NCBI GenBank assembly: GCA_044892505.1
Contig: CM097882.1
Coordinates: 303,738,001 to 303,802,000 of the forward strand
Direction: 5' to 3'
Length of the DNA: 64,000 bases
Source of the DNA: Schmidtea nova
Lineage: Eukaryota
In this document: piece by piece, positions 4,101 through 53,974 of the stretch
Position numbering within the stretch: the stretch's first letter is position 1
Layout: each line of letters begins with the position of its first letter
Made by a program: the position numbers and the translations under genes
The notes under the pieces: model-generated
Told to the model about the DNA's origin: nothing
Database searches by the model: none
Seen by the model: only the letters and a program-made list of their open reading frames with translations

Positions 4101-7100
4101 CTACTAAAAAGTTACTAAGATTCTGACACTATGATAAATATGAATACCATCAAACGAGACTGGACAGGAATACATGAAAAATTAATATACTATAGAAATC
4201 ATCACACACAAAAACCTTCTCTTTAGCATATTTTCTGATATCAGCAATAATGTTGGATCTGTTTGTAGTTCCGAATCAATTTGTGGAACTTCTTGTCTGC
4301 CATTTATGGATCTTGTTTCCAGCACAATTAGTGTGTCTTCATTTGCTGCTCTCAACTTCTTCTTTAATGCTTCTAACATCTTGTTCCATGGTATCCCAAT
4401 AATATTTCAATTTCAATCTTGACAATGTTTTTCAAGCTGATAAATGTCCTCCTGACCCATCGTCATGTTATATCAACAGTAATGCTTTTCGATGTTTTGT
4501 TGGAACAATAATTAACTAATTTTCATTTTTAACACATTTTAACAGACCGTCATGGATAATATATTTATGCTTTTTTCCACTATGTATTTCCAGTCGCTCT
4601 CTTTTTTGATTGTGACTGCATTATTCCGTAATTGATTCAATTCATCATCATTTTCTTGATCATTTTGCAATTCCTTCATATTATTTGCGGTTTCCACACG
4701 CATTAGAGATGTCGGTTTGAAAGTTAATCCTGAGAAATGCACGTTCTATAAATGTGTATTAAATTTCATTGGTCATGCAGTGAGTGAAAAGGGAATTCAA
4801 ACAAATAAAAGAAAGATTTCAGAAATTGAAAATACAACTAAACCGAAGAGTGTTACAGAATTGAGATCATTCTTAGGTTTAAAGAATTATTATCGGCGGT
4901 TTATCAATAATTCTTCAATAATAGTAGCACCTTTGTATGACGCAACGACAGGGAAGGATAAAATTATTGTTTGGGCTGAAGAATATAGAAAAAGGTTTAT
5001 CAATTTAAAAAATCTGTAAAGTGAAGCGCCAATAACTTATCAAAATAATATTAATAATAACTTATAAAATTTTAAATCTGTAAATATTTACAAAAGAACA
5101 ATCTGAAATTACACAAAAAATTAAAATTTATAATACTAAAGTTTATTAAATAACATTTATGCAAATCGTGCACTGTCAATTCTCTAAATTGGAGTTCTAA
5201 CATCTTTTTTATTCACTTTATAACCTTGAATGATTATATTAATGAACCAATGTTCATAATCCTTGTATTCGATTGATTGGAACGCATCATGGAAACGAGT
5301 TTTTCGGTCGCTGATGTAATTTGTTTTTTTACAAATTAAATTTTTATTGATTTTCAGTAACACTATTTAGTGCAACATTTTCTTTAGTTATATTTGCAGA
5401 TAAACTGTCATACAATGACTGCTAATTTCGCTGGATAAAAGGATCTAAACGAAATTTCCTCTACCAAGAACTAAATTTTAAAATCATAGTACATTTGAAC
5501 CGGTTTGACTTCAGTCCTAATTTCCCTTTTATTATCTTCTCTCCTGTTTTCTTCGCCCTTGTTAGGGCTGTTAAATATTTTATCATAAGTTGGGAAGTTG
5601 ATTTGTGTGATTGCATTTTAATAATAGTGATATTATCTTATAAATGTCTTTGTATTTAGTCACGAGCTTATGTCTTTGTCCAATGAGAATAACGCATATG
5701 CTATACATGTATGTCTTTGTTTAATGTGTCTTTTTCATATGTAACTGATGCATGTGTGTCTATCGATTTATTTATTTAGTTATTTACATCTTTTAACTAA
5801 TTAAGATCTTTATTTGTCATGTTTTTATTTATTTACTTATAAAAAATACTTTAAGTGATAATTAATTGTTTAACTAATTAAAGTTTTTATTTATCATGTC
5901 TTTATTTATTTAGTTATAAAAATTCCTATTAATTATATTTTATTTTTAAAAAATCTAATAAAATTATTTAAAACTTAATAAAAAACTCAAACTGAAAAAA
6001 CTAAAATAAGAATGATAAAAAAATTATTAAATGAAATTATAACACATAAAATGAAAAACATTTAATACAAGAAACTGATAAAATAAAAACATTGATTTTT
6101 CTTTATTGTTATTCTGAAAGCTCGGAATCAGCAATTTTCCAATGACATTCGACGCGATCGGGAGTTGATGAGATTCAAGAGGAGCCGGAAATTCAGGCTA
6201 TTGATTAGAATCTGAAGGAGCAGGACAATCGAGAAATTCATTGCATTCCTTATTTGAATTTTAATCAAGCCATTATTGGAAATACTCAGAAATCTACTTT
6301 AGTCAGTGAACACTGGATTGTTGTTTACGTAAAACCGGATCCAATATATGATTTTTGATTCATTTGGATATTATTATTATTTCAATTTATTAGTTAGTAA
6401 ATTGCAATCTTTGGGTAAACCGATTGTATATAATAGAACTTGGTATCAACATCCATTCCCGAATACTTGTGGTCAACAATGCCTTGCATGGTTAAAATCT
6501 ATGTTAAAAACAATTTAGATTAATAAATTTTATTATAAATAATAACTTGATATTTTATTGATATTTACAGTTATAATGATATTGGAGGAATAATTATTAA
6601 AGAATTATGTATTATTAATGTTAATAATATTTTTAAACCAAAGTATTATATAAACAATGATTCACCTTTCTGGGCAGGAATTGGAATACCTGATCGATTG
6701 GAATAGTATGAAGGACACTATTGCTTTTGCCTAACGTGTATTATGAATGATATTGAAGATACTAGCGCTATTTTCTATGTCAGTGATCTTGATAAACTGT
6801 TGGGCCTGGCAAATTAACTTAAAAACAACAGAATGTTGGGCCCGGCGAATCGCAAGCAATCTAAAATAGAAATAAAATAAATACAAAAAATTAATAAGAA
6901 AAACAATAAAATAACCAACAAAATACCAAAAATCCACCAAGAATCGATAACAAGCAATGGAGCCTAAAATGAATTAGCAACGAATTAGAATGACAATCAA
7001 AAACTTAATCACGCAGAAAGACATTGGAATGAGTCAAACAAAAACTGACAGTGAGTGGGCGGAACACTCGGATGATACACAATCTAAAATAAAACGATTA

Positions 7101-10100
7101 AATAAAAAAAGGTAATGCATCAATAAACATAAAACTCACCGAATTAACAGTGGAAGGACAGGCATTAAAATAAAATAACCAACAAAGTCACATACATACT
7201 GAATTCTGATTGGCTAGCCGTCAACAAAAATAAGTATATATACGGCAGCCAAACTCAGTAAGTTAATGTCATTTTTACTAGTGAACTGTCAGCTTACTTG
7301 TGACAACTGTAAATCAGAAGATCTGTGTAATAGCGAAATCGAATCGGAATAAAAGTTATGAAGTATTGTAATTTGTTTTATTGTAAACCCTCATGAGTAA
7401 AAATGTATAAGGTGTCCCGAAGGTCGTTAGATCTGCCGGGATTTTGGGCCTCTCAGTGCAACACCTTCGGGTGAGGGCTGATGCGGCGAGTAGTTTAATA
7501 AAATAAATTCGGGAAGGGAGCACATAACGGACGAGACGAAACTAATTATGCGACAAAAATGTAGATAGAGAAGAGACACATGAAAGATGAGACGACACAA
7601 ACCCCATGATAAAAACATTGACAGGAAGAGAGGTTTCAGGGGACACCGTAGTAAACACCCCAGTACTTAGCTATACAAATGGAGATACTTACAATCACAA
7701 GTAATTATCAAGGGAGGGAGCGATAAATCCCCTGAGTTAGAGCTATTAAACTAATAATAATCCCGACATGCTAGTGGAATGTTTCAGGTAGTTAGTGCAG
7801 AATTGAATGATGATAATGTATGATGACTAAACATAATCGATCGGTGCGATAATAAGCATCGCTAATGAATGATCTAAATTTGACGTAGGCCGCATCATAG
7901 TGACTGTTAGATTTTCGTGGGCCGATCTCATCACCACGGCGAGTGAGATAAATATAATGAATAAACCAGATAGTGAATTTGAGTATTTCTGCAGAATGAT
8001 GAAGCCGGTAAATTATGAAATTGTATTGATGGATGTTGAGAATGCCTGAACCCATGTACGTATGAGCAACGGGAGGATAATGTCGGTGAATGGAATGATG
8101 GGGGCTGCGCAATTATTACCATATGATTGATAACTATTTTCTCAGAAGATGTTACGGAGAGCAACCCGAATATATAATTGCCAACTAAATCAACCAAATG
8201 AAATGGAACCGAACGCAGCGACGAAAATTCCGAGAAAAATCCAAGCCACAGCGAAGCGCCACATGAGGGTGTGGAGGCGAAGCCACCTAAATCTCAACAA
8301 TATGCCGAAGGCTATCCAATACCATTGCCGGAAAAGATGGAAGGGTGACCCATCTTGGCCCTTGCCAAACCCAGACAACATTTCTAAGATTCCAAAATGG
8401 TTTATTCAGTTCGACGATGGGAGTGCTATGTCCCAATGGTTGCTAACGTTTATGGATATTCCAGGGCAGGTGATACGACAGATGGGCTATATCCTCTTAG
8501 AGCGCCCCAGATGCATCCGTACCGGCGAATTTCGTCCGTACACCAATTCTCCAGTAAATCAGGATATGGAGCAGGACCAATGGGCTCCGGGAACACGGTT
8601 GTGGGAAGTCTTTATCCATAACAACCAGTTATGTTAGATTCCGTTTTCGGAGTACTTCCAAGCGGACGGCACCGGAAAAGTGGATCGAGAATGCGATCAG
8701 GAATGGGCCGAAGTCTGATGAAACATCTACGGACATATGTGTGATATATGGTGTCAGCTAAAATAATTAAATAAATAAATGGTTGAGTTCATGAGTTTTG
8801 ATGGTGAAGCATGAATGTGGTGTGAAGGGATGAATGACTGGGGGAGAAATAAATAAGACGGCGGAATAATGAACAGAAAATTGAAGTCAAATAGAAGGTG
8901 TATGATGGTGGTGTGATGACCGAATTTGATAAAGACGAATAGTTGACCCCCTGTAATTCTAGATGGACGAGATTACAGAGGACCACTGTGAAAATCGTCA
9001 ATTGAGAAGGCGTATGAAAGCGCTGGAAAGCCATTTGAAGCGACAGGAATCAGAAATAAACCTATTACGAACAACCTAATTCCACCCCGAACGGTCTAAA
9101 GATATACAACAACATCGCTACCGGACAGAGAGAGCTCTAGAAGATCAGGTCAGAGAAACCGCCGCGGTCAGATTAGAACTGAATAACTATCTACGATTGT
9201 CGACCAAGGAATTTGTTGAGCAACAATTGCGGCCCCTGATACGTGCTAGTACTTTTAGCCGATGGGCAGTGTCAACATGCACCAACAATTAAACCCAAAC
9301 CGAGGGATGCTTCACTTCTACCACGAACATTCCAGTTGAAATTTCTAAACCTGAAGGGTCAGCACGCAAAGCGGAGGAATCGCTTAGGCGCGAAACGTCA
9401 CCGAGAGAGGAGGGCGTATGCCGAAAGACTCGAAATCGAGATCGATTTGCTGAGCGGACAAACAGAGAAACAGCTCCTCAATGTTATCAATCCGGATGTT
9501 TTGCTAAATTAAATGAATGTTTCAGTATTAACAGTGTTGTCTCGTGATTGAATATAGAATGTATGAAAATTTGGTGAATGATGTAATAAATAAGTATACA
9601 CAATTCATTTGAAGGGATCGGGGGAAAATGTTAAGGGAGCGAACCATAGACGTAATTAAACTCGTGATAAAAATGGGGACCGGAATAAAACCACACAGAC
9701 CTTCTATCGGTAATGGTGGACCCGAAGATAAATGAGGGAATAGTAGCCGCAAGGTTGCTCACCTGCCTTATCATTCTACAACGTTGATACAGTATCAAGA
9801 TGATGAGTAATTAGGGACACATCATGGGTATCAGCGGGGGAAGCGTGTTTATGTTGGCGAGATTACCCTAATATTAACATCAAATAAAATCTCAGTTCAA
9901 AGACCATACCAACAAACCAGCAAGAATAAGAAAAAGAAAATACATAAATTAACATATAAATCATCATAGAACAACCAATAATGCATAGAATTTGCGTAGT
10001 GAAACATAAATAAAAATTTTATTGTGCATAAAATAATCACTAAGACTTGACTACATCACGAGTAGGTGGGCCACTCAAATTTGACAACATCACCATAACC

Positions 10101-13100
10101 AAGCACAAAATATTCATGCTAAATACATAATAAATAGCATAAAATCAAATACAATCAAACCTACAGACAGTTAATGAGAACTACGCAAATCAAATGAAAA
10201 CTATTATCAGACGATAAGACGAATTCTGATTGACTGAAGATTACTATATAAGTAAGTACTAAATCAGTCTAAAAAAACACAACCACAACACCACAACAAA
10301 AACCAACACTAAGACCAAACGTAGCCTAACTAAAGTTATATCTGACATTGTACCAAGCTAATCATTTGAAGAAACATTTGTGTGAAGGATCAATTGGAAA
10401 TAAAGGTATACTATGAGACTTTTGTTGTTATTTTAAACCCTAATGTTTTCCTTTTTATGATGGTAAAATCAATAAGGACACGTCCTGGAGGTATCCGGAT
10501 TGACGGGCGGAATGGGCCTCTCAGCACATCATCCTATGGGCGGTGGCTGATGCGGCGTAGTGGAGCCAAATGAACAGGAGAGGAGGTGCACATAGAGCAT
10601 CACTGAAAAGAATGCACATATGACATTTTCGAGATCTAACGAGTCGAAATCAAAGGGAGGATTTGGTTCAGTCCCGAAAAAATTAAGGAGATACAACAGC
10701 ATCGATATTGAGCCGAAAGAGCGTTGGAAGAACAAGCTCGAGAGACAGCCGCCGTCAGGCTAGAGCTGAATAACTATTTAAGAGCGTCGGCTCGACATTT
10801 TATCGAAAGGCAGTTGAAGCCATTGATCAGAGAGAGTACGTTCGATCGATGGGCGACTCCCGTCGGCAAGAATATCGAAACGCAAACGGAAGAGGGATTT
10901 TTAACGACGAAAGAAAAGGAGGTATCGACTATGCAACCAACCCAGGTCTTAGCCATGAAAGCGAAAAAGAGAAACCGCCTAGGAGCAAAGCGGCGCAGAG
11001 AGAGAAGAGCTTACGCGGAAAGGCTCGGCTTAGAGGTAGACCTGCTTAGCGGGTTATCCGAAAGACAATTGATTAATGTTATCAATCCAACCGTATTTCT
11101 AGGGAAATAAAGGTATTTAGAGATGACTTGACTTGTTTTATTGTTTGATGTGGAATGAATGATGAAATGGAGATATAAATAACTGATAAAGAAATTACAC
11201 AATTCATTTAACCAGTCGCCGGAAAAGGATGATAAAAAAACCCTAGACATAATTAAACATAATGAGTAATGGTAATTGGGACCGTAAAAAATCCACACAG
11301 GCTTTCTATCAGCAGTGATGAACCCGTAGATAAACGAGAGAATAGTAACCGTCAAGGTTGCTCACCTGTCTCGTCATTCTACAACGCTAGATACATTACC
11401 AACTTGATAAGTAATTAGGGACAAGTCATGGGTATCAACGGGGTGAATTTTTTTATGTTGGTGAGATTTCCCTAATGATAACATCAATAAAAATCTCAGT
11501 TTAGACACCATACCAACAAACCAGCAAAACTACAAGTGTTGAAGAAATATTTCTCGAAATTGAGATTAATTAAATAGAATTTTAAAGAAATTGAAAATGT
11601 TTCAGATAATATATCGTGTCCATATAGAGACGATAGTATGTGTAGCTATAAAGGATGTGTGTGCGGTGTTATAGATTATTTAAATCAATTAATGTTTTAT
11701 GTGTTTTATTATTAATTAAAATTATTATTATTTGATAAATATTATCAAATTATTAGTCATCAAAGTCATGACATAGTAAATAAAGACACGAGGTCATGAA
11801 CTCACATCTATTTATCATGCTACATAACAACTATAGTGACATCATATACATAAACAATCATGAAGTATGTGTGTATACATTTCCCTATCTTATCTCGATT
11901 TTGATTGGATGATTAATAAAACTTAAAACATCAGCTTTATATAGTCTATACTTGTATTTTTAGTCACTTTTAATCACAAATTTTATTAAAACTATTTTGA
12001 ATCAAAAAAAACTATTACAATGAACAATATCGATTTAAATAAATCACGAAGAGTCGCCGGAGGAGTAAACATTAATTTTATTATTTTATTTTTATCTCGT
12101 TAGAAATTATTATAGCGAATAATATTGTTGCTAATAACAGTGTTGGAGGAAACAGTGGCTAATTGAATGGAGCAAAAATTATGGGTATATTTTATATTAT
12201 TTTTACTAAATATTATATTATTATATTTTTATTTTAAATTTATCATTATTATATTATTATATCCTTATTATTTTATTTTTAATTTCAAGTTATTATTAAT
12301 GTTATTATTATTATTAATTTAAATTAATTTTTTAAAAATTTTTTATACTTAGAAAATTTTGATGCTGATATTGATGCGTCCACTATGCAGAATGCCCCCA
12401 GTTTTTCGGATGCTCCGATTAACCTTTTGATTAGTAAGTTTTATTTTACAATGATACGTCTCTTTTCATCTAAAGAGCTATGAGCGACAAACCGATACTT
12501 ACTCATTTACTCTAAGGAGTGCAATTGGCAGAAAACGTACCGGTACGTTCATACTCTGAGAAGGGTAGTCAGCCGTGAACGTACGGGTACGTTCATACTA
12601 ATCAACGGGTTAAAGGATCGAAAAAATGTAAGTTTATGCTAATGTTTTTAAAAAAAATATCTAAAGTGTTTAATCAATTGTTTTTTAATTTTTATATTTA
12701 ATATACTTTTAATATTACTTATATTAGTTTTGTAATAGTAACAATATTATTTAATGATAGTTATATAAATTGTTGTTTAAATATTCAAAAAAGAAAGGTG
12801 TGTTTTAAAATAAATAATTAATCTTGCCATTTGTATTTTTGATAAATTTAAGAGGCATAACTGGCTTACCATGCCAAGAAATCAATGCCGTCACTAGACA
12901 GCAGACGACCAAAAGTATGTTGTAGTCATTAGCAAAGCAGGCTAGAGAAATATTAAATTTTAACGTGAGGAAGTTCGATGGAAAAGTTGGTTGTGAGGCC
13001 GAACTATGGCTAAAAGATATTTCAGAATGATTGAGGATAGAAGACCAGAATTTAGTAAATGCGTTTGATTTTTTACTGACAGAGGCAGCAGCTCTATTAT

Positions 13101-16100
13101 TGGGAGCAGCCAAAGGAGAGAAAATGACAGATCTAATAGCGAAAGAATGGTTCATTGAAACGTTTACAGCAAAGAAAACAATTAAGAACAAAATCGTGGA
13201 ACTTGCCCAATTACATCAAGAAGGCGATGAGAGATTTCAAGTTTTTGAAATAAGAGTAGGAACGTTAATAAAGAGCGAATTAAACTCGTAAATGTCGAAA
13301 GAACAAATTGTACGGGATATAATTTCAAACAGAGCAAAAGACGATCGGGTAAAAGAGATATTTATGTCAGGAAAATTAACTAGTTTTGAAGAAGCAAGAA
13401 ATATGGCGAAAATTCAAGAAAAATTTGAAATGACAAATGGAAACATTTCTAATATGTGCGCTATACGAATAGAATCCTACGCATCTATTGCAAATAAATG
13501 TAAATCTAACAGGCGTCCGCAAGACAGCACGACAGAGAAACCGATATACATTCACGAAGAACGACGAGAACTAAGGTATAGATCAGCAAGACCCAAAAAT
13601 AATCAATACGTACCAATAATAGAGGAGTGAAAAACTGAGAACGAACGGTATTTTACAGGACGAAATAGTTTTTCAGAAACAGAAAGGAAGATTCCAACAG
13701 TATCACTGAAAGATATCGCCAGAAGAATATTTAACGACAGTAGGTCGAGAACGACACCAACACCAGAGAAATTAGCTCCTGGTCAGTGTTTCTGCTATGG
13801 AGAAAAAGAACATTGACGTTTTAAATGTCCAATGAAAGATAAATGTCTCATTTATTGTAAGGAAGGCCATCGATTCAGAGACTGTTATTTACTGAATAAT
13901 AGAAACAATTACAAGAAAAGAGTAGCATGTATATATGAAGAAAATTTTACAAATAATAACAACGAAGACACCGAGAATGCCTATAGTAATTACGATGAAA
14001 TGATACAAAAAATCAATAGACAAAGCGAAAAACAGAGACGATCCCGTTGCTTTCATTTCGTCAGTGGGATCGGCACAATAAAGAAGAGAGAGAATCGAAA
14101 TGAAGTCAAGAAGCTGAAGATGTACGAGACGAATAATAGAAAAAAGTGGAGTAAAATTATTTTGAATTGAACAGAAATCGATATGTTGTGGGACTCTGGA
14201 GCATCAGTATCAGTGATGAGCAAGAGCAGTTGGACAAAAATAGGAAAACGAAAGCTGACAGTAGATAATATCACATTATGTGGAGTGTTTTCATCTAGTT
14301 CGGAAAGACCACTAGGAGAAATGACGATAGAAGCAGATTGGAATGGCAGGAGGAAAAAATAAGTGTGATTGTAGTTACAGACATACGGTCGAATTTTATT
14401 GACAGCGTAGACACATGGAAAAGTTTGGAATTCTGCTGGTAGAAATCAATAATATCGAAGCATCACTGGTGGGAAAGAAATATCAGAATTCACAACGAGA
14501 AATGAAAGCGCTGGAGAGTTTGTGGAGTTATAAAAACGAAGATTTAGAAATAATTATGCGAAAATTTAGAGAAATTTTTATGGCATCAACTTTTGACTTG
14601 GGATTCACTGAAATGTTAAAACATGAGATGGATATAACAGGAGATCCAGTAAGAATACAGCCCAGAAGACAACCAATGCATCTGTAACAAAAACTAGGCG
14701 AGTTAATCATCAACTTACTGGAAGCAAAGGTCATTAGGAAATGTAAAAGTTCATGGAATGCACCGCTGGTGATAATCGCAAAGAAAGACAATTTAATTAG
14801 AATGTGTGTGGACTACAGAGGATTGAACGCCATTACAAAAAAGTGTCGTTTCCAATGCCAGATATTCGATTCCTTTTGGACTGCCTGGTAGATTCAAAGT
14901 ATTTTATTTCCATTGATCTAGGACATGCCTATTACCATGTCAGGATGGCGGAAGAAATACAAGACGTCATAGATTTTAGTACAAGGCAAGGACAATTTTG
15001 CTTCAACAGATTACCTTTTGGACTGGCAACAGCCCCAGCAACATTCCAGAGGATGATGCACTCTGCTGGAAGGAATATTGTTTAAAGGAGTGGTGGTTTA
15101 CTTAGACGATATATTGATTTATGGGAAAGACAGTAAAGAACATAATTTACGGCTAGAGGAAGTATTCAAAAGGATACAATTAGCAGGGTTGAAGATTAAT
15201 CCTGGTAAATGTGACATTTTTAAAGAAGAACTGACATTTCTGGAACATACTGTTAGTTCCGAGGGGATAAAGACGAATAACAAGAAGATCAAAGAAATTA
15301 AAGAGGCAGAGATACCGACATGCGCTAAACAATTGAGGTGGTTCCTGGGTATGACTACAGTAAAGTTCATAATTACTACAGTAAGTTCATAAAATATTAC
15401 GCAAAGATTGCTGAACCGTTGTACACAGCCACTTCCAGATGAGGGAAAATGATTATTTGTCAGAAGATTGCAATAAAAGTTTTGAATTGCTTTAAACAAA
15501 ATTATGTGAAGCCCAAATCCTGGATTATCCAAGAGTAGAGGACAAATTTATTCTGGACACAGATGCCAGTTTTGGAGCCATCGGATTCGTTCTGTGTCAA
15601 GAAAGAGGAGACCATACAGAGGTGGTTATTGCGTATGGATCAAGGCATTTAACGGCACACAAAAAAGGGTATTGTGTGACAAGGAAGGAATTACTTTCAA
15701 TACACGAATGTCTTATATTTCAGACAATATCTATATGGGAAGGCTTTCGTAGTGCGGGCAGATCACAAAGCAATAGTCTTCATGAGATACACCAAGAAAG
15801 CAATAAACCAACAGTTTCAGACATGGCTATCCAACCTTTCCGGATATGACTTCGACTTGCAATATAGGAAATGAGAAGAACATTGGAATGCAGACGGTAT
15901 CTCAAGGATCAAGGGTATGTTATGTGCTCAATGCCAGACACAACATGAAGACGCGAAAGAGGGAAAACAGAGTGAGACATATTAGTGAGACTATTAAGCA
16001 AACAAGAAGATAACGTAAGACTTCATACACATGTCAAGGGCATTACTGGGAAAAGATAATGAAGGAACTCGGAGCAAGAAGAAATTCCCTTTCAATTTGC

Positions 16101-19100
16101 TGAAGAACACAAAATTCGAAAACGGATTATTCGTGCTTGAGAAAGACGGAAAGGATATCATATTAGTACCATTATACGACACTAATACATTAGTCAACGA
16201 CATATATACAGAAATGTGTCATATTGGAGTGAAGAAATTAACAAGTTACATGAGCGATTTATTTTTTTGGCCGAATATGCAGAGAATAATTCAAAGCTGT
16301 TTAAGATCATGTGAAATATGTTGTAAATCAGAAGTTCCCAACCTTTCTGGTGCTGTGACCCATGATAACATTTGCCAATTTGTGGCGACCCAAACAATAA
16401 AATCAATAGAGTTGCACTTCAGTTTCAGCATTTTTGCAGTCAAATATTATTATTGTTGGGCCCGGTGAATCGCAAAACAATCCTAAAAAGATATAAATTA
16501 AACATAAAAATAACAATAGAATTAAATAAAATAGATTACCAACCATCAATGAAAAACAAGCAATCAGCAAGCACGGAAAACCTGAAAGAAATAGCATAAC
16601 AATACAAATAATAATAATAACATAGAACTTACCGCTAGACCGAGATGAGAGAACTGGTTGATGAGTAACAAACCAACCAAGCGAAAATAAGACCTATCAA
16701 AATGTCATCAGATAAAATAGGTACAATAAACAATAATTACCAGTGATCAATTGAGAACCACCAAAGCCTGAAATAAAAAGAATGATGAATGGTAAAAATA
16801 ACAATAAAATTATCAGAGCGAGAATGACAATTATGAACGGAACAAATGCGGAGGTGGGCCGCTCTACAAAATGTAGAAAATAAATATAAAATAAAAATCA
16901 CTGAAGCATAAATAAAAGAATAAACATCAAACTCACCGGTCTAATAGAGAAAAACACAACAATCAAAACAAATGGATAGAAAATAGACAACCGTGCTAAA
17001 TTCTGATTGGTTGACAGGCAACACAAATTAGTATAAATACTGAAGCGAAATCAGTATGAGGGTCACTTTTTTACCAGTCATTATTTTCACCGAGTGTAAT
17101 TTACCATTACTATCTGACATCTTACGAGTGATTGTGAACGTTTTGAAAATTTGTACATCAGTAGTGAAGTTGAAATAAAGGTATACTTCATTTGAATTTT
17201 TATTATTAATTGAACCCTCATAATATCTAAAATCCATAAGTTTTGTCCCGAAGATCTCGCGATCTGACGGGATACTCGGCCTCTCGGCACAACATATTCT
17301 TATATGAGGTACCGATGCGGCGAGACTATAATGTGTTAAACTGATGCGGAGGGGGAGGGGTGCACATAGCGCATTGTATAAAGGACCTATAGGCGATTGA
17401 AGTCGTGTGGATAATAATATACCATAACTATGCTCGGTGTCAATCTAGATCAGAGGGAGGGACTCTCCATGTTACCGCCGATGTCATAGTAAAAGAAACA
17501 GGCAGTGAGACCAGATAACCCAACGGGTACCCAGTAGGTTCCCTCCAGAATAAACTAGCGGACCCCATCTTCGTAACCATACCCATTGATTAAACCATTC
17601 TGAACCGAATGTACATGATCCAGTGAAATGATAAATTCCAACATACGATAACAATAACCAGTAATGCATAAACGATCACCATAATCAATAAAATGCGTGT
17701 AACGATAAGCCTAAGTAACAATCAGTGTAACGATCAGCCCACGGCGATAGGCCATAGCCAAGACATAGCGTTCGCGTAGTAACACCAACTACTACGTCAA
17801 CATGCGAATAACGATATAAAATTACAACCGATCTAACAACAATATATTGAGAGCAATCAAACTTCTTAAAGGCCGAGGATGTATGAAAATGATCGAGTGA
17901 GTAATGTAAGAGTTGAATATGTTCTCTAAGTATGATGTCCGAATGATGCTTGACTGGGTTGACTGATGAAGGAATGCATGATTGACCGACGATTTCGACT
18001 GATAATTAAACCCTGTACACGTTCATATTTAGAAAATGAAATGCCGAAGAACCCGTCCACGAGGCAACAGGAATCAACAGTGGCAAGCCATGGAATCTAC
18101 ACCTATTCCGAATACCATCAAACGGGCGGCAGAGCGATGCCTCAGAACATGGATGCGCAGACACGTGGATCCCGCAGCCCGAGCGGCCATAACGTCTTTT
18201 CGATGGCGAGTACGCTGGGAAGGCGATCCGAATTGGCTGACACAAGCCGCTAGTCCGACACGAACGAAGCCCCGATGGTTCGTACAATTCGAGGATGAGA
18301 CACAACAACCGAAATGGATAATCAGCGATCCATCCATCAACCCAGAAGCCGAACCACCGGAGAAAGCAAACCATACCTACATGCTCCCGGAAATGTAGCC
18401 ATGGACATTCAATCCAACGGAGACCAAGCGAGACTGTGGGAGGTCTTCGCATGCAACAATCGATTATGCTGGAGCCCCTGCCCCAAAATATACCTACCGA
18501 ACGGAACCGGGCGGGAGGATAGACAATTCGACCAAGACCTCAGGGAATTCACGCAAGAACTATGAACGGAGCTGTTGGAAGTGTGTTGAACATCTGTATT
18601 TTCATCTAAATAAATTGTCTAAATCTCTTGGTTGTATGAATTGGTGTTGTACTGTGTATGTTGAGTTATGCAAGGGTGAATGATGTATGAGAGACGTAAG
18701 AGAGGCACTAAGTAGTGTATACGAGAGTAGGGTAAAGTTAGAAACGGCAAGAACCACAACCAAGTATAGCTTCGGGAAATGTAGGGGAATACCAACCCGT
18801 AACGAACCCCAATCCAAAACTGATAATTTAAACCCCTTTATTTTTTTATATGAATAATACGACCCCTCGTGACTTCAGGAAAGAAGCCAAGGAGTATAAA
18901 GCTCGCGCTAAAGTGTTGGAGAGTCGATTACGCCAATTGTGTGAGGAGTATCAGCGCGTTAAAACCACATGGTTCAACCCTGAACGAGTGAGATCTATCC
19001 TACAGGCAAGATATAGAGCGGAGCGTATCGCCGAGGAGCAATCCAGGGAGACCGCAGCGGTGAGGCTAGAGCTACATAACTACCTAAAAGCCTCTACTCA

Positions 19101-22100
19101 GGAATTCATATCGCAACAATTACGTCCACTCATCCGGGCGAGTACGTTTAATCGCTGGGCCGAAACCATATCTACGACGACAAATACTCAGACCGAGGCA
19201 GAACAAGATACTACGACGCCCACCCCAGCAATATCGACGCCGCTGGAAGGCTCAAAAAGAACGAAGCGCCGAAACCGTCTAGGAGCAAAAAGACGTCGAG
19301 AACGAAGGGCTTACGCAGAGAGACTCGGTATCGAGGTCGACTTACTGAGTGGATTGACTGAACAACAACTATTAGATGTGATCAATCCGTCAATGTTATT
19401 GAACAATTAATAAATGCATATGAAATGAGTTGAATTAATTGGGTTGTCTGTGGAATGATTGAGAAAACAATAATAAAGTCACTCGAACCCATTTCATTTT
19501 ATGCTGCAGGTATCCAGAATCGAGTTATTTGCGAAAAGTTCAAGGAGCGCATAAAGGGACCAAAACAAATCCACGTAAACCTTCTATCGGTAGTGGTGGA
19601 CCCGTGAATAAACAAGGGAATAGTAACCGCGAGGTTGCTCACCTGCCTTGTCATTTCACAACGTTGGCACAGTACCAACATGATGAGTAGTTAGGGATAC
19701 ATCATGGGTGTCAGCGGGGATATATTTTTTTATGTTGGCGAGATCACCCTAACGTATAAAATCCAAACGATCTCAGTTGTCCTTCTAACCAACACACCAG
19801 CATTATAATTATGTTTTGGCTTCTAATTATCTGATTTTATTTTATTTTATACTTTTATATGCATCATATTTTTTTATTACAAATTTTGAATAATATTCAA
19901 ATTTCGAATAATATAATTGAATCATAATAATTTATCAATAAAACAATTTGTTATAAGTATATGTTTTGGCTAATATTTTTAAAAATGAATTTGCAAAGGA
20001 ATAAAATGTTTACATTATTGTAAGTGTGTATTGTGCAATGTACATTATACAATTAAGAGTCTCACACAGAGGCGTAGCTGTGATATTTTGCGCACGCGGA
20101 CGAACTATAAAATTGGCGCCTCAGCCCCCTCTCCGTTTAATCACATTTTTCTATTACATTAAATAAGGAAAACAATTTAAATTTTAATAAAACATTGTAT
20201 TTAAAGAAGCAAATTTATAGAAATTATAGTACATGACCCACTCAGTCACTGTCGTAGACTGGTTTACATAGTCTACAAAAGATTTATTTTCCTTGATTTC
20301 ACTGTTGCAAACTGGTCAATTACGCAAAATCTGTTTTTTCCAATGTTTCTCTTTCGACGCTAAGAAGAGCAAGATCGCTGAGACGATCCTGTCCCATTGA
20401 CGCACACAAATGCGACAAAATAAGTTTCAATTTGCTGAACGATCGTTCACAGCTTGCAATTGAAACTGCTATTGTTAATAAAATTTGTAATGAAATTCGC
20501 AGATTCGGAAATATGTCGTTTCCATAAAACACAATAAAACCAAGAAGATCCAAAGATGTTTCTAGTAGAACTTCATTCAGGTTGATGAGCAGCATTCTGC
20601 AATCTCCGATTTCTGTGAAAAGTTTTCTCGGCTGGCTGCAGTGGTTGGCAGGCAGCATCATCACTGTGGATGGCAGACGTATCAGATGACACGTCTGCTG
20701 AGCCGCTGCAGTGATCTTGTGACCGATTTATTACCCTTGTTTACTTATTATAATGTAACGTTGTAAGCCTCATTTTGGCGCCTTGTACTTTGGCGCCCAG
20801 GGACATATGTACCCACCCCACCCCCTAGCTATGCCTTTGGTCTCACACAATCGAAGCTATTAACTTCAAAGTTGAGGTTTTAATTTATAAAATTTGAAAA
20901 GAAAATAAAGCTGAAGAAAGCAAAAATCTTATTAATTTAATTATAGCTGTTAGAGTTGAAAAACCCAAAAAGCGTCAGTAAGAAGGCTGTGCTTGCTTCT
21001 TTCTTGCCAAATCAGAAATTCTTGGAACAGTCTTTGCAAGACCACAACGCAGATCATCTTCTGCAAAAAGTCTGCTTCTGTATTTAGATTTGATAACCCA
21101 CAATCTTGAGAAGCCTGTTTCACAAAGGTATGTTGTTGGAAAAGAAAGAAGCAGGCGCAAAACGATCTCAGACCAAACAGGATATGACTGCAAACAATTG
21201 ATCCAGAATTTGGTAATTGACATTGAAGAGAAATCATTTTTTGCTGCATCACTGGTAATCAGTTCAATGAACTCCTCTTGTGCATTCTCGGGAACATCTT
21301 CAACTCTGATGGTGAATGGACTTCTAGCAAGTGCAAATGGTGTATCAGGTAAATTCGGAAAATATCTTGAGATTTCTCCTTCAAGAATTTCAAAGTGTTC
21401 TTTGACAGAAAGTATTGTGCTATTCATTTTTTCCTGTTCAATGTCATTTTCCTCAAAAAAAGCAGATAAGTTCGACAACATGTAAATGCTATTTTCATCC
21501 AATTTTGTTTGCCAAAGTTGAAGTTTCAATTGGAATTCTCGGATCTTTTCTGACAAATCTAGGCATGTTTCATTTGGTCCTTGGAGGGATGAATTTTATT
21601 CGTTTAAGAGTGCAAAGATGTCAACCAAATAAGCAATTTCGTGAAGTTGGTTTTATTCGTCAAAAAGTGCTTCAAAGTGTGGTGTAGATTTTTGATAAAT
21701 AAACGTTTATAATTCATCACGAAGATCAAAAACACGTTTTAAAACTTTGCTTCTTGACAATCATCTCACATTAGTGTGAAATAACAGAACATTATTGCAT
21801 AAATCCAACTCACTGCAAAGTTTTGAAAACAGGCGGCTGTTTAAAGCACTAGCTTTTTTTTCTTAAAATACTGGACATCCTTGCCTGCATAGTTAGGATA
21901 TTTAGTATCAAAATGGCGTTTCAGTTTGTTGGGCTTCATGGATTCGGCTGACATAATTTCGTTGCAAATAACGCATTGTGACTTTTCAATTCCTGTTGCA
22001 ACTGTGAAAGTAAAGCCATACTTTAAAAATTCATCACTATATTTTCTTTTCCTAACACTTGTATCTCGCTTATTCATTCTCAAGGGCATGCAAATTTCAT

Positions 22101-24041: not shown

Positions 24042-27034
24042 AGTTGTTGTTGTTTATAAAAGCAGTTTTGTTTTAAAGAGGAGTTTTGTGATAAGAAAAG
24101 AATATTAAAACAGATTTAGTTCAAAAAGCAAGTTTAAAGAAAGAAGCACTAAAAAGCAATTTTGTTTGAAGCACTAAAAAAGCAATTTTGTTACAAGCAC
24201 TATCAAGACCTCACTTCGCATTCTCGCATCTTCCTCTGGATGGACCAAATCCCCAAGTTTAAAAGAAGAAGAGCAGTTTTAAATCCTACGAGTTTACAAA
24301 TAAACAACAAATGAATATTTTAATCAAATATGTTTTATGTATTGGTTTATTAATTTTTCATTCAGTTACATTCACTAAACTGATAATTTTTTCAGCTAAA
24401 ATGTGTAGCTCAGATAGATAGCTTACTATCTATCTGAGCTTGTATCAAATTTGTTTTCGCGTCTGTATGCGCATTTGTTCTTTTTTGTGTAATTCTTACG
24501 TCTGTGTGCGCTGCGAATTTGTAAAAATTGGTCTCGCGTTTGTGTGCGCGATTTTATTTCCAGCTTTCATTTGGAATCATTGGAATTAATTCCTAAAGTG
24601 ATTTTAAATTCTTGGATTTATGAATTGATTCCTCAGTTGTTTTGTCGAATCATTTTGGATTTGAATATTTTGAGTTTGGTTTTGAATTTTGCTGTGTGTA
24701 TGGTTTTTAGCATTTTTTAAAAAGATCTAATTTGAAAAAGTGTGATTAAAAAATAATAAAATTTCCAAGTATTTGTATTTTGGAATTTATTCGATAAAAA
24801 TGGTTAATTTTAAAGAACCTTCTGAAGATTAAACCAAAGTCAAAGGTTTTTGTGATTGTTTCTTAATATTTTATCTGAAACCAGTCATACCAAATGAATC
24901 TATAATCAAACAATATTGTGATCTAATATTTGTTGGATCGAATAATGACTCTATTCATGCTAATCAGAAATCTTTGGAGTTTCCCGAAGTATCTGTCAAT
25001 GCAGAGGTTGTTTCAATTGATTCATTTATTGATGTCGAAGCAGATATTGTTTCTATTGTATTATGCCGTTTAAAGAAAGAAAACAAACCTAAGTCTATGA
25101 TTCACATATATGATGTTCCATCAAAATCAGAAAGCCCTGCGGAAATGATGGACAAATCTAAACCCAATCTTGTATTCAAAAGGAAAACCGAATTGACCGC
25201 GAACAATAATAGTTGAAATACTTCTATTTTATATTACTGATAAAAGTTGAATTACTTTATATCACTGATAAAAGTTGAATTACTTTATAATAATCAGAAT
25301 AGTTTTTTTAATACTTATAATAGCTGAATTAATTCATGATACTTAAATTTCATAATACTTTAATAATAGTGGTAATATTTGTATGTTAACCTTTAATATA
25401 GTACGTAATAGTTTTTTAAAAATCATTACGTAATATCTTTAAGGTAAATAGAATAATTTACCTTAAAATAGAAAGCGAATATATATTAGAAGGGACCTGC
25501 AAATTTAAGAGTACTATTACCTTCTATCGGTGGTGCAAAGCAATTAAAAAAATTAATAAAAATATAAATTACAGTATAACATTAGAAAATGAGAACAAAA
25601 ATTAATATTTTCGGAAGAAAATGTATGTATTAGTAAATGAAAAGATTAGTACAAATATAATAATTTAAAATCGACGGAGCACCTTTAGGCAATTATTTAA
25701 AAATATAAATTGATGACATTGATCATTAACATTAAGGCAGTCATGCTTGTCAAGCTTATCCTTTAAGTGCGGGATTAAATTTCATAAAAAGTTAGGAAAT
25801 GTATCAATCATCCGTCAAAAAAAGTTAAAGATATAATTGTGATTTTCATTAGGCATTCTATTCAATAGTATTCGGGTGTATCTGCACTTGAGAGCCGCGT
25901 ATTTTGTAGAGCGTGGGATAAATCTGCATCTCGCACTTGAGAGCTGTACACGGTGATTCGGATTTATCCGAATTTCGCATCTAAAGGGTTAAGCAAAAAA
26001 AAATGATTTAGCGAAGATTTTAATAGCTTGGTAAGGAGATTTCGGAGGCAAATTAAATTAAATTGTTTATCTTTCAAATAATTTAGGTGAAGGAACCATA
26101 TATAACAAAAGAGAAACTACACTCATAATTCTCATAAGAATTATGTTAAAGAATATTGATTTAGTGCTAAGTTTGCTATACAAAGTTAAAGACAGGGATA
26201 TTGTTGCTCGATTATGGTACCATAACAGTGGAGGGTTTTTGACCGTTAATATGACCTTGACGTTGCTATGGCTCATATCAACAACTCAACATACAAAACA
26301 TTAGATTAACCATCTTGTTGCCCGTCGCAATGTAACGTTGGTAATGCAACAAATGGATGGGTATTCGCAATCAGTGAGCGTCGAAAAATTCGAAACTATG
26401 ATTGACCGAATATTTTCTGGGTCCGAGGGCTACCGATAGAATGTTTAATGCCCATTTTGTCCCTTCTTCAACCATTTATCCACAAACATTCAATACTGTG
26501 GTGGGGGGTTTTATTTTGTCCGGCGGGCATGTCGGATGGTCGCAAGATGAAGAATTCAGTAATACTGTCCGCAACATCTCTATAAATGTCTACTCGTCTT
26601 TCTTGCGCTGAATTTCTCAAATTTTCTCAAATTTCTCAAAATCATGATTTGATCGTTTCCAGTATATCAAAATAAAACTAAAAAAAGAATTAATACTATT
26701 GGAAATAAAAAACTTAATTAAAGACAATGATTATTAAAAAAAACATTTATTTTGCTTGACTTATGATTTTTTCTAAAAAGGGTTTTTTGTTTGTATAATG
26801 CAAATTGGAAAATTGTAATTTAGATTTAAAAATTATAATTTGTTAATTGTCGTTCGACTTTTTAAAAAACTTAAATTTGTTAAACTTGGTTCGGTGCTTT
26901 TGTTCAAATAAATATGGAGTCCCAGATCCTCAAATTCAATTAAATAGGAAAACAAATAGAAATGATCCAAATTATATTGAATTAAGAACCACGAAATTAA
27001 GAACCATTGGAATTTCAAAACAAAAAATCTACAT

Positions 27035-43599: not shown

Positions 43600-44600
43600 G
43601 TTGATTTGAACGTGCAGTAAAATTTTAAATTAAATTTAAAAAATTAAATTATTTCAAAAAACCGAAATCTGATGGCGACAAATTTCAAATGGGAAGTTTT
43701 ACTGAATTAAAGTCGTTACTAAGGCCTCAGCAAAATTTTAAAATCTAAATGTTAAAATTTTAATTATTCTATTATAAATTTAGAGCAAGATAGACAATAG
43801 AATTAGGATATGAATAAAGTTTTGCTTGAATTTTAAATATTAAAATATAATAATTTGGAAAAAATTACGAAATAATAGTCATTTTGATAAAATTAACGGT
43901 TGTAGAATATCCCCGAAAATATGAATTTTTAAAGGAATATTCGATCCCCGAATTGAGATTGTGATAATATGCTTTGCTATGATCGTGTGAAATAAATGTG
44001 TGGAATGCTTATGTCTTTGGATAATATAGCGTATAACGATTAATGGAAATAATCGATTTCATTGTGCTTTGGATATTGGTAGGAAAAATTGAGAATTCAG
44101 TGACAGTAGGGTACAAAAACATCCCGAAAAACCCGAAGAACTTTAATACTCTTTGTACGAATGATTTTCTTGATTTTATTCTGTTTATCAGTGTGTTATG
44201 TGTACTTAAAATGGGTCCTTGCATGAATTACTGATGTTTTGATGTTGAAAAAGGTTTTATTTTGATGCAATAATAAATTTATATTGATGTAGATTATCTA
44301 TTTTGAAAGTCCGATTAAAATTTTATTGAATCTTTATGGATAAATGTTTGAAGAAGGGACGAAATGGGCATTAAACCTTCTAGCGGTAGCCCTTGGACCC
44401 AGGAGATATTCGGTCAATCATAGTTTTGAATTTTCGACGCTCACTGATTGCGAATACCCATCCATTTGTTGCATTACCAACGTTACATTGTGACGGGCAA
44501 CAAGATGGTTAATCTAATGTTTTATGTGTTGAGTTGTTGATTTGAGCCACAGCAACGTCAAGGTCATATTGACAGTCAACAACCTACCATAATTATAAAT
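43600..44600 (+). repeat. decayed dispersed element of unknown class (copy 2)
   Basis: inverted homolog of 26230-27760. Confidence 0.75.
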
Positions 44601-46665: not shown

Positions 46666-47379
46666 GGTACTTCTATACTTTCCCCTCACCTTTGATTATT
46701 ATATAACAAATCATTATAATTTATTGTAAAGGATTGTACAATACTATACCACTCAATATACATTCAAACAAATCCTTTCCTTTATTTCTCTGTCTCCATA
46801 TGAATTCACATAGATAAGAGTCGAGAAGACTTCGGTGAGTTCCCCATCTTCTTTTGTGTTTCTGTTTAGCAACATTCCACATTCCTTCCACAGTATTTGT
46901 ACATGCACCATTGTTTGGGTCAATGGAGTTTTCTGAGTGATTGACAGTTAAATGTGTATAATGCATATTTGGTATTTCAGTAATGCCATTGTATGCTGCC
47001 CATCGATCACTTACGATTGTTGTATGCAGCAAAATCGACTCCTTAATAACGGGAAGTAGTGTTGCTGCCGATCTGCCTGGTATGGCATACAAAAAACATT
47101 CCTTTGTCTCACGGCAAATCCCGCCAAATACCCATTGCTCGTTTATTTGTCTACCAATATTATACTTTCGTCGTACGAAACAACTTTCATCTATTTCAAC
47201 AGTAGTGTTCTGACCACCAATTTGGATTGGATTAGCAAGAAGGCTTTGAGCACGCATCTCCCTCATATAGTTATTCCAGTCCACAATTGTGTTTTGGCTG
47301 TAAATATTCAACTCACTTTGACAAAATGCAATTTAGACGCATGCCAAAAATCAAAGGTGGGGGGAAGTATAGAAGTACC
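46666..47379 (-). mobile_element. Merlin (IS1595/ISXO2-like) deletion derivative
   Basis: ~30-bp TIR ggtacttctatacttcccc; 8-bp TSD ATAAATAC; open 196-aa DDE core VEIDES..WVFGG..SDRWAAY..HLTVNHS..TNTVEGMW. Confidence 0.93.
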
Positions 47380-50070: not shown

Positions 50071-50940
50071 TAGAAAATGGTCATTAATAATGATACACTA
50101 ATTATCTCATCTAACTTGAACTTTAAATCTTCTTGTTGTAATGGAGAAGATATGGACGAACCCAAATCACAAAGCAGGTTTCGATGGAGTCAAAAAGCTA
50201 AGGAAAAATGTATCAAATTCTAAAAACAGACTCAAACTTGACTATCGGGGCAACTTGCACACAGTCTAAACAACACGATGCTGAAACGCTTCCTGACTCG
50301 AGCATATAAAACATATAGAATTAATGATTTGTGGCAAATGGATTTGATGGAAATGATTCCGTATTCAAAAATTAACAAGGGATACAAGTATATTTTAACA
50401 TAAAATGATGTTTTCAGTCGTTTTGTGAAGGCTATTCCAGTAAAATATAAATCTGCTAATGATATTGAATTTGCAATCAAAACAATGTTCAATGGTGTAC
50501 GTCAAAATAATTTACAAACTGATTTGGGTAAGTTAATTTATTTTTATTAAATATTAATTATTTATCTAGGCAAAGACTTTTACAACAGTGTTGGGCCAGC
50601 CAAATGACAAGAAATCGTCTAAAATAAATAATATATTTAGAGAATAATAATAAAATACCAGTGAATAGATGAAAGGCCAACCAAAAATCATTGAAGTCTG
50701 AAAAAGAAAATGATATAATAATGAATAATAAAAATATGACAACCTGAAAACCAGTCAAGTAGAACCAGACCACCAAAGCAAGCATGACATCACCAGAATA
50801 TGTCATAAATCATAAAATAAAGACATAAGATAAAGACATAAAATATATCAAATAAGATGAATTAAAATCAAAAACTATCAATGACTGGACATCAGAAATA
50901 ATTAGAAAATAAATACCAAACATTAATAACACAGTGACGA

Positions 50941-51092
50941 ATTCTGATTGGCCGACCCAAACTGAAAACTGTTATATAAGCAGTAGCCAAAATCAGTAGA
51001 GAGAGAATTTTTGTCATTGAGTACCAAGAATGTCACTGTAAAAACATTGAAATTGTACCTTGAGATCATCTAGCGAAATAAAAGGTATGAGT
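50941..51092 (+). promoter_or_regulatory. element D promoter, AATAAA and splice donor
   Basis: ctgattgg, TATATAA 50973, TCAGT 50993, AATAAAAG|GTATGAGT 51077-51092. Confidence 0.7.
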
Positions 51093-51156
51093 TAGTTGTT
51101 ATTCTTTAATATGATACGAGCTCTCATGATTCATATATTTAAAATCATTAAGACCA

Positions 51157-51235
51157 CATCTGGAGGGTCTCCGGACCCGTAGGGCGCCAAAGGGCCTCTC
51201 AGCGCATTACCTTCGTGGTGATGGCGGATGCGGCG
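51157..51235 (+). ncRNA. motif 1 (copy D)
   Basis: ggtc-tccg-gacc hairpin; GGCCTCT-cagc..cattacc-ttcgt-ggtgatg..ATGCGGCG. Confidence 0.5.
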
Positions 51236-53202: not shown

Positions 53203-53379
53203 AATATAGAATTGTTTTGTGTGCGTGTAATTGTATGATGAGTAGGAGAAGTAGAACGTATGCATGAGTAAATAATCGGAAATTCACAATTCATTTAACC
53301 GGAAGACCGATGGAGATAAGTAAATAGAACCCTAGACGAAATTGAAACGGTGAATGAGTAAAAGGGGGACCGAAGTAAA

Positions 53380-53564
53380 TCCACAAAGACCTTCTATCGG
53401 TAGTGGTGGACCCGTAGATAAATGAGGGAATAGTAGCCGCAAGGTTGCTCACCTGCCTCATCATTCTACAACGTTAGATACACCACCAACATGATGAGTA
53501 GTTAGGGACACATCATGGGTATCAGCGAGGTGAATATTTTTATGTTGGTGAGATTGCCCTAATC
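53380..53564 (+). ncRNA. structured RNA motif 2 (copy D)
   Basis: atgagg/cctcat, GCAA loop, gatac/gtatc, catgatg/catcatg, ttaggg/ccctaa. Confidence 0.7.
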
Positions 53565-53974
53565 AGAACATCGAATAAAAAATCTCAGTTGTTATACTCA
53601 CAACAACAAACCAGAAACAGTAAAGGCAATGAAATTCTAAAGGAAATCAATCATTACTCGGTATTCTCTCAATTCAAAGCGGCTGATGTCGAAAGATTTA
53701 ATCCAAAATTAAGAGATAGTCTGAAAAAAATATTTTGTTCACCAGGGTTGTTAGATGTTACGAGAACATCTTCTAAGTTGCTTGAAAAAACATTTTCATT
53801 AACTGAATTCATATTCAAAAATTTATTAATACCACAATTATGTTTAATATTTAAACAAACCTTTCGGCATTGAATCAAACAATTTCAAAACAATTTCTCA
53901 TAAGAATTCAATATCATAAATACAAATCGAATTAATTTTTTATTTGAAATTATATTTTAAAATTTAAAAACTTA

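Follow-up and report, generated by a model that had tools for sequence, protein, structure and literature searches.

A stretch of 64,000 nucleotides from Schmidtea nova (GenBank assembly GCA_044892505.1, contig CM097882.1, positions 303,738,001 to 303,802,000 of the forward strand; "the window" in what follows, with positions counted from its first letter) holds several copies of a conserved sequence that forms the 3' end of the long terminal repeats (LTRs) of giant gypsy-like retroelements. This sequence is a real RNA structure of four domains. Its helices, its sense-strand orientation, its position, a stem that crosses the LTR end and its complementarities to tRNA-Pro are all observed directly. 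On the strength of these sequence features, we suggest that the RNA could be a multi-contact docking platform for the primer tRNA that sets up reverse transcription, a reading to which we give an even chance of being right.

A sequence-only reading of the window had proposed a covarying structure of about 185 nucleotides at 9691..9872. The structure is real but larger, extending from 9676 to the LTR end at 9922 and, in 5' LTRs, 6-10 nucleotides beyond it, about 250 nucleotides in all. Comparison of the window with itself yields four copies of this stretch, here called A to D, with positions referring to copy A unless stated otherwise. Their alignment contains the compensatory sets that were originally listed, namely atgagg/cctcat, acgaga/tctcgt and acaagg/ccttgt, gtaga/tctac versus gtgaa/ttcac, acc/ggt versus gct/agc around the TTCTATC loop, and cgttgatac/gtatcagcg versus cgttggcac/gtgtcagcg. 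The set attaggg/ccctaat versus gttaggg/ccctaac is present as well, but what was described as a pseudoknot is a loop-loop kiss, and it is missing from one sequence group (group 1). A GNRA loop is not a general feature, since copy B has a loop of 5 nucleotides and group 1 has loops of 6-7. The stretch is indeed the best-conserved part of the LTR, with an identity of 0.87-0.94 at 9734-9833, whereas the 30 remaining bins range over 0.21-0.79.

Further copies were gathered from the window's own genome (1.25 Gb, AT-rich). Alignment A2 comprises 53 same-family copies, made up of cluster representatives from 97 distinct cores together with window copies A and D, and carries a structure that was set by hand, with 11 helices and 60 pairs. 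Pairing is possible in 96.1% of its 3165 cells, and 22 of the 60 pairs have changed on both sides; none of 500 shuffles matches the observed pairing, and sliding the partners against each other leaves only 31-47% paired. G-U cells outnumber A-C cells by 241 to 51, which shows that the plus strand, as RNA, is the strand that folds. With significance judged against a null simulated on the fitted tree (E<0.05), covariation persists at a modest level: four of the 60 proposed pairs pass (two in hairpin I, one in domain II and one in the kiss), and none does when all column pairs are considered. The folding energy of single sequences is unremarkable (z of -0.57 for copy A and -1.53 for one copy linked to a primer binding site).

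The same fold recurs between families. Grouping 164 distinct cores at 70% identity gave 8 real sequence groups, the most distant representatives being 41% identical; group 5, a truncated duplicate of copy B, was dropped. A parse anchored on invariants alone succeeded for 31 of 32 representatives and retains about seven with a misplaced GG junction, which lowers the counts for domain III. Five of 27 proposed pairs pass the tree-aware null, one of them over all column pairs, and nine of the 16 top-scoring column pairs among 3570 are proposed pairs. The middle and apical helices of domain II are 83% and 94% paired across the 31 representatives (shuffled, 56% and 58%), and the two helices of domain III 85% and 79% (shuffled, 69% and 60%). 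For each of these helices, none of 2000 shuffles reaches the observed value, and G-C, A-U, C-G and U-A pairs are all found at the same places. In copy A, the parts of the structure are as follows.

9676..9681, plus strand: segment 1, GGGACC, single-stranded, complementary to nucleotides 45-50 (variable loop) of tRNA-Pro.
9691..9719, plus strand: hairpin I, a covarying 3-bp stem (9699-9701/9709-9711) with a conserved 7-nucleotide loop, TTCTATC (9702-9708).
9718..9724, plus strand: segment 2, GRACCCG, located where hairpins I and II meet; it is complementary to nucleotides 50-56 of tRNA-Pro and resembles a primer activation signal (PAS).
9724..9779, plus strand: domain II, a stack of three helices whose U-AGU/GCU-CAC internal loop is invariant.
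9782..9836, plus strand: domain III, two helices around an A-K-U-W-CCAAC / GG internal loop, with TTAGGG in the apical loop.
9795..9798, plus strand: the CCAA site, complementary to U33-U34-G35-G36 in the anticodon loop of tRNA-Pro(UGG).
9810..9872, plus strand: the loop-loop kiss of 9810-9816 with 9866-9872.
9848..9922, plus strand: domain IV, the terminal hairpin, in which TTTATG at the base pairs with the spacer between LTR end and primer binding site.

An A-rich linker separates segment 1 from hairpin I, where an outer CCAC/GTGG stem was also considered and shows no real covariation. Two helices come in addition to those first described, 9859-64/9888-93, which covaries, and 9852-57/9917-22. 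As loci found with the motif pattern favour its invariants, we counted conservation on 30 loci selected by their primer binding site (PBS) alone; 20 belong to group 1, eight to group 2 and one each to groups 4 and 7. CCAA is present in all 30, GRACCC is exact in 28, and segment 1, as GGAC or GGACC, occurs in 18 (by group, it is found in 1, 3, 4, 6 and 9). In the window, CCAA is intact in copies B (11399-11402), C (19675-19678) and D (53486-53489) and has decayed in A, which reads TCAAG for CCAAC at 9795-9799. The TTCTATC loop varies mostly at its sixth place. Groups 2, 4 and 7 have the kiss between the loops of domains III and IV, as does, on visual inspection, most of group 3; it occurs in 10 of the 30 loci and is absent from group 1, the commonest group among them. 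Its pair 143-211 in A2 shows 18 two-sided changes and is significant under the tree-aware null. The TTAGGG at the core of the kiss (9811-9816 and homologues) is identical both to the telomere repeat common in animals and to the tRNA-Pro(AGG) anticodon loop, probably by chance.

The position of the structure becomes clear at the junction with the PBS. Four of 30 unselected LTR ends run on into a shared 6-nucleotide spacer followed by an 18-nucleotide site complementary to tRNA-Pro. Two earlier guesses at the site, TGGCG directly after the LTR end (no matches) and TGG within 4 nucleotides of it (41 matches; in the 30 examined, the flanks were unrelated), did not succeed, as the spacer is 6 nucleotides long. 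It measures 6 nucleotides in groups 2, 4 and 7 (L091:331-336) and 10 in group 1 (L304 end). The usual spacer between LTR and PBS is 2 nucleotides, and a spacer this long would imply that integrase processes the ends in an unusual way. In each of the 19 distinct PBS-linked junctions (groups 1, 2, 4 and 7), the TTTATG strand pairs with the spacer outside the LTR, and the longer spacer of group 1 is matched by a longer stem partner. As this pairing exists only in 5' LTRs, the fold is complete only in RNA that is read through the 5' LTR, and the completed fold ends about 1 nucleotide before the PBS. A PBS pattern has 3086 matches in the genome, and the motif core lies upstream in all 30 of the loci selected from the PBS alone. 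The original expectation that the structure would sit directly before PBS and gag thus holds for the PBS but not for gag: the first frame after the LTR, encoding a RING protein, begins about 550 nucleotides on, and the gag frame lies about 3.5 kb beyond the LTR.

The complementarities to the primer were assessed with the host tRNA-Pro(UGG) gene, read from the genome. Segment 2 can form all seven pairs with nucleotides 50-56 in 19 of the 31 representatives, six in nine and five in three. The place opposite U55 is occupied by A (22) or G (9), both of which can pair with U. In 12 of the 53 copies of A2, the change from G to A at this place breaks the sole intramolecular partner, a C-G pair, and is left unrepaired; it is the only recurrent A-C combination in that alignment. 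Segment 1 is complementary to nucleotides 45-49/50, adjacent to the target of segment 2. In group 1, segment 2 lacks the G that would face C50, but segment 1 carries it. In 20,000 shuffles of the tRNA body, at least 7 bp to the T-arm region arose with p of 0.03-0.04, four Watson-Crick pairs to the anticodon with p of 0.08-0.09, and both matches jointly with p of 0.002-0.003, with cut-offs that were set post hoc.

The PBS also records which isoacceptor was used, because the CGG isoacceptor differs from the UGG gene at nucleotide 59 (U59 versus A59), which faces PBS base 18. This base is T in 3086 sites, A in 69, C in 3 and G in 1, as counted with two search patterns of slightly different degeneracy. 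Sites of the CGG type thus amount to about 2%, against about 98% for UGG, while the CGG share of the genes is up to 210 of 1106 (19%). The bias fits a reading of the anticodon by CCAA, but it would equally fit differences in tRNA supply or inheritance. The tRNA genes themselves lie in long tandem arrays, with Pro(UGG) every 308 bp and Pro(CGG) every 713 bp, and there are arrays of Arg(UCG) and Lys(UUU) too (L154, L292 (G000:C1:459.6 Mb; C2:112.0 Mb) and L232-L261).

Together, these features suggest a model for the start of reverse transcription. In full-length RNA begun in the 5' LTR, the 18-nucleotide PBS would open both the acceptor stem and the T stem of the tRNA. The freed T-arm strand (nucleotides 50-56) would then pair with GRACCCG, the variable loop (45-49/50) with GGAC(C) in most groups, and the anticodon loop with CCAA, which would favour the UGG isoacceptor. 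The stretch of roughly 200 nucleotides between the contact sites would be folded by domains II-IV, which would place these sites close to the PBS. Reverse transcriptase would meet the terminal hairpin as its first template, and the hairpin could gate initiation. With GRACCCG partly masked by neighbouring helices and CC by GG, the platform might stay off until primer and nucleocapsid arrive. A group 1 copy (L306) in which no gag or reverse transcriptase (RT) family was found within 10 kb after the PBS retains the motif core, as expected of a signal that acts in cis.

Several observations weigh against primer docking. The complementary strands are short (4-7 nucleotides), and 7 bp to some place on the tRNA arise in 18-26% of shuffles. 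Segments 1 and 2 largely fit the host tRNA-Lys(UUU) too and are hence not specific for Pro, and groups 2, 7 and 8 showed no segment 1. Within the RNA, the CC has a possible partner in the invariant GG that faces it (57 of 62 cells, with no variation), and ACCC might pair with that GGG. The invariant loop of domain II and the TTCTATC loop are not explained by pairing with the tRNA, and modifications of G37 and A58 in the tRNA may hinder neighbouring pairs. The isoacceptor bias could stem from tRNA abundance, from inheritance of the parental PBS or from deletions that mimic an A. Three of the 30 PBSs (L106, L109 and L118) have T at place 12 and match neither of the tRNA-Pro genes read; they perhaps correspond to a third isodecoder such as AGG, and a tRNA-Pro(AGG) gene was not found in the window's genome. 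Nor was a family with a non-Pro primer, since the 18 matches to such sites consist of 13 decayed Pro sites and five unrelated sequences.

Among the rivals, a packaging and/or dimerisation signal fares best; we regard it as a realistic possibility, though well short of an even one. Gag or nucleocapsid would bind the invariant loops, and the kiss would form between two genome copies. The 5' leader position and the completion of the fold only in the 5' LTR context would suit such a role, as would the covariation of the kiss, the invariant loops that the tRNA leaves unexplained and the core retained by the group 1 copy without gag or RT in the part read. Against this, the kiss is absent from group 1, no 6-nucleotide palindrome occurs in more than 10 of the 32 representatives, and no Rfam packaging family matched. 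Moreover, most of the motif lies within the LTR, upstream of the PBS, and retroviral psi elements are mostly found downstream of it. The roles considered here can coexist, and packaging may go together with priming.

A more elaborate form of primer binding, which we consider possible but not likely, is a folded tRNA receptor like a T-box. Such a receptor would read the anticodon and thereby select one isoacceptor, clamp 12 contiguous nucleotides of the opened T-arm and variable loop between two strands that lie far apart, and present UUCUAUC as a T-loop mimic to the freed D-loop. The TTCTATC loop fits the tRNA T-loop pattern at six of seven places, with U at the place of purine 57, and its docking on the primer's D-loop is speculation. 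If true, the primer would be chosen by RNA architecture and not by protein.

The LTR-encoded frames raise the question of a Rev/Rex-type response element, in which an arginine-rich protein would bind the domain II loop or the kiss and drive export or stabilisation of unspliced RNA. The open reading frame concerned (ORF2) is found at the following places.

18832..19410, plus strand: ORF2 of copy C, with an arginine-rich C-terminal stretch, ending about 150 nucleotides before the motif.
10712-11110 in copy B and 52636-53202 in copy D: homologous ORF2 frames.

ORF2 starts with a coiled-coil-like part and ends in an Arg-rich tail, is interrupted in copy A, and has homologues of about 30% identity in groups 2 and 7. 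It precedes the motif in four of 10 group 2, 86 of 94 group 4 and both group 7 loci; in group 1, neither ORF2 (0 of 34 within 1.5 kb) nor the kiss is present. Domain II offers a purine-rich asymmetric loop with G opposite G, and complex retroviruses keep response elements in the LTR. However, the core, including the invariant loop of domain II, persists in group 1 with no ORF2 nearby. A database search found no relatives of ORF2, and Pfam gave only a sub-threshold match to bZIP, so the protein may bind DNA instead. We therefore think an export element improbable.

The two remaining candidates of the sequence-only reading fare worse. Rfam 15 covariance models, run at gathering and E-value thresholds, gave no family over the gathering threshold (among them internal ribosome entry sites, psi elements, Rev response elements, ribozymes and T-boxes) and no match in the window, the best E being 2 at 9600-9960. 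A ribozyme that has escaped recognition is very unlikely. In its favour, the fold is compact, has several helices and leaves many invariant nucleotides unpaired, and the 3-bp stem with its 7-nucleotide UUC loop recalls P3/L3 of the hepatitis delta virus (HDV) ribozyme and TTAGGG/CCCTAA the pistol pseudoknot. No known ribozyme core was found, however: the hammerhead core matched one of 32 representatives and the twister and pistol patterns none, G stands at loop place 6 in two of 32, and the space before the stem is too small for HDV P2. Cleavage between R and PBS would also sever the template of strong-stop DNA. An internal ribosome entry site, perhaps one like the intergenic type of dicistroviruses in which the kiss would imitate the pairing of anticodon and codon, can be practically dismissed in spite of the size, the multi-domain fold and an AGG/CCU kiss core that resembles the pairing in such sites, because the three frames after CCU all close within 18 codons (in one PBS-linked copy), 32 ATGs precede the RING frame and 99 the gag frame, the kiss is absent from group 1, and no such Rfam family matched.

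The copies in the window are solo LTRs and as such would be inert relics; they derive from giant, Burro-like gypsy elements that carry a gene for a fusion protein. The elements terminated by copies A-D are 3.0-3.35 kb long, have TG...CA termini and lie between 4-bp target duplications; A is nested in B. The window also contains two more distant copies.

6834..9922, plus strand: solo LTR copy A, 3089 bp, TG...CA, duplication AGAA, inserted in copy B.
11278..11526, plus strand: motif copy B, at the end of solo LTR B (6798-11526, a span that includes A; duplication AAAC).
19556..19802, plus strand: motif copy C, at the end of solo LTR C (16454-19802; duplication TTAT).
53366..53616, plus strand: motif copy D, at the end of solo LTR D (50589-53616; duplication ACAG; the last two bases of D itself read AA).
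44356..44589, plus strand: diverged group 1 motif copy, without the kiss.
26229..26463, minus strand: second diverged group 1 motif copy.

A free-standing 3-kb unit is ruled out by the genome-wide distribution of LTR ends: a pattern for them has 1294 matches (control 15), and pairs on the same strand are often about 26.2 kb apart. Together with an LTR of 3.3 kb, this period gives a total of about 29.5 kb. A 4-bp target duplication also surrounds one full group 1 element. Past LTR and PBS, the element contains, from 5' to 3', the RING frame, a repeat-rich leader, the gag frame, and then ankyrin and MATH/TRAF frames. The gag frame is long and has zf-CCHC knuckles and a viral fusion-glycoprotein domain; another copy shows the fusion domain, RVP, RVT_1, RNase H and integrase in that order. 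In Pfam, Monjiviricetes_fusion scores E of 6e-19 and 1.5e-52 upstream of RVP, and Ank, RING and MATH_2 are above the cut-offs. BIR was not found in the element's frames by Pfam, and a likeness to Bcl-2 was noted by eye alone, with no Pfam match.

This agrees with Burro of planarians, described as gypsy-like, giant (about 30 kb) and equipped with accessory ankyrin, RING/BIR, MATH-TRAF and Bcl-2-like domains (PMC6431247). Shared features are the length of about 30 kb, a Gag with three CCHC knuckles, a fusion-glycoprotein domain between gag and protease, the order protease, RT, RNase H and integrase, and the ankyrin, RING and MATH/TRAF frames; the comparison covers length, domains and their order. 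LTR anatomy, primer and RNA structure are not treated in the passages of that account considered here (PMC6431247).

Some elements deserve separate mention. L306, the group 1 element without a gag or RT family, has an LTR of 4.2 kb and encodes RING, protease, ankyrin and TRAF-RING within 10 kb after the PBS. Judging from this one copy, the commonest group may be non-autonomous. Contigs from three of four runs join across copy C (window 16450-19805), so that an empty allele exists and the insertion is polymorphic. At L092:8590-8598, just before the 3' LTR and at the expected place of the purine tract, a palindrome, GGGGACCCC, repeats segment 1, and a similar stretch is present in a group 1 element; from its sequence, the palindrome could be a second tRNA contact.

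Within the LTR, the order of signals was read by eye.

7209..7259, plus strand: promoter-like set of inverted CCAAT box, TATA and initiator-like TCAGT, seen in A-D; putative U3/R border.
7348..7380, plus strand: AATAAA followed by a T/GT-rich tract, seen in all four copies; putative R/U5 border.
8134-8637 and 18033-18398: ORF1, an LTR-encoded frame.

The CCAAT, TATA and initiator-like words lie 400-600 nucleotides into the LTR in A-D, with AATAAA and the T-rich tract about 100-125 nucleotides further on. From this layout we infer a U5 of about 2.5 kb that would contain two protein frames and both RNA motifs. An AATAAA-like word in domain IV was considered as a poly(A) signal and rejected, as it is not conserved in C or in other groups. 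The other RNA motif (motif 1) is a second conserved, apparently structured stretch just after AATAAA (7411-7540, 10480-10600, 17245-17370 and 51155-51280), and no Rfam match was found in its region. Near it there is a possible intron of 65-75 nucleotides, with a donor-like AAG|GTAT directly after AATAAA in B, C and D. Elsewhere in the window lie other decayed elements: a gypsy gag-pol that includes RT, RNase H and an integrase zinc finger (12880-16350, plus strand) and, by eye, a second gypsy-like pol (60800-63900, minus strand), a Penelope-like RT with a GIY-YIG-like end (55500-57680, plus strand), a hAT-like transposase (20975-21595, minus strand) and an ISXO2-like transposase (46721-47332, minus strand).

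The motif is widespread in its genome, where the core pattern has 15,288 matches (control 1). Outside this genome, 30 metagenome matches were found, none with the remaining core features, and there were no matches in viral contigs. Literature searches on how planarian and Burro LTRs are built, on primer sites and on LTR RNAs with covariation did not find the motif, although the supplement of the original Burro paper may name a primer or LTR layout, and the passages considered from three related papers do not describe it (PMC8532177, PMC11410931, PMC10886601). It is apparently an undescribed RNA family and, as far as our searches show, the first cis-acting RNA landmark for giant env-bearing retroelements of the planarian type. 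As a marker, it finds about 15,000 LTR ends whose remaining sequence has diverged beyond alignment.

Functionally, the motif most likely belongs with the known primer-contact elements of retroviruses, as a new variant of larger size. Additional primer contacts, the PAS and the A-rich loop, have been disputed for decades in human immunodeficiency virus (HIV), where they are short and vary between isolates. The PAS of HIV-1 pairs with tRNA nucleotides 48-55 and is masked until nucleocapsid acts (PMC3675109), the A-rich loop pairs with anticodon nucleotides 33-36 (PMC13191261), and human T-cell leukaemia virus type 1 selects tRNA-Pro(UGG) as primer (PMC11251516). The RNA described here resembles the U5/PBS domain of HIV-1 in its position in a putative U5 upstream of an 18-nucleotide PBS and in its partial masking (PMC3675109, PMC13191261), the PAS in having a strand of 7-8 nucleotides that is able to pair with the 5' side of the T arm, G-U being possible at 55 (PMC3675109), and the A-rich loop in having a 4-nucleotide strand complementary to anticodon nucleotides 33-36 (PMC13191261). 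It differs in that the candidate PAS is about 200 nucleotides upstream of the PBS (about 55 in HIV-1), that its register is 50-56 and not 48-55, that a second strand is available for the variable loop, that the primer is tRNA-Pro, and that the element is known from sequence alone. Both candidate contacts, moreover, lie together in one large fold that is conserved over eight diverged families, 41-70% alike, with thousands of copies. As the PBS records the isoacceptor used, this fold makes the question of primer contacts testable by comparison and simple probing.

Other known systems share single features. The stem that spans the LTR end and stops at the PBS is reminiscent of the U5-IR stem of avian retroviruses, and the contact of avian U5 with the T-loop and the contacts of Ty1 and Ty3 are instances of extra primer pairing in LTR retroelements; sequence and size differ in all of them. 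The extended primer contacts of Ty1 are downstream of the PBS, and those of Ty3 at the far 3' end. With the Rev, Rex and Rec response elements, the motif shares a large LTR structure beside an Arg-rich accessory frame, but here the core survives where that frame is absent. With the T-box riboswitch, it has in common a structured RNA, possible anticodon reading by a codon plus A in an internal loop, and a T-loop-like hairpin. It lacks, however, an Rfam T-box match, the GAA partner of a loop E motif and an antiterminator, and the acceptor end of the tRNA is bound by the 18-nucleotide PBS instead.

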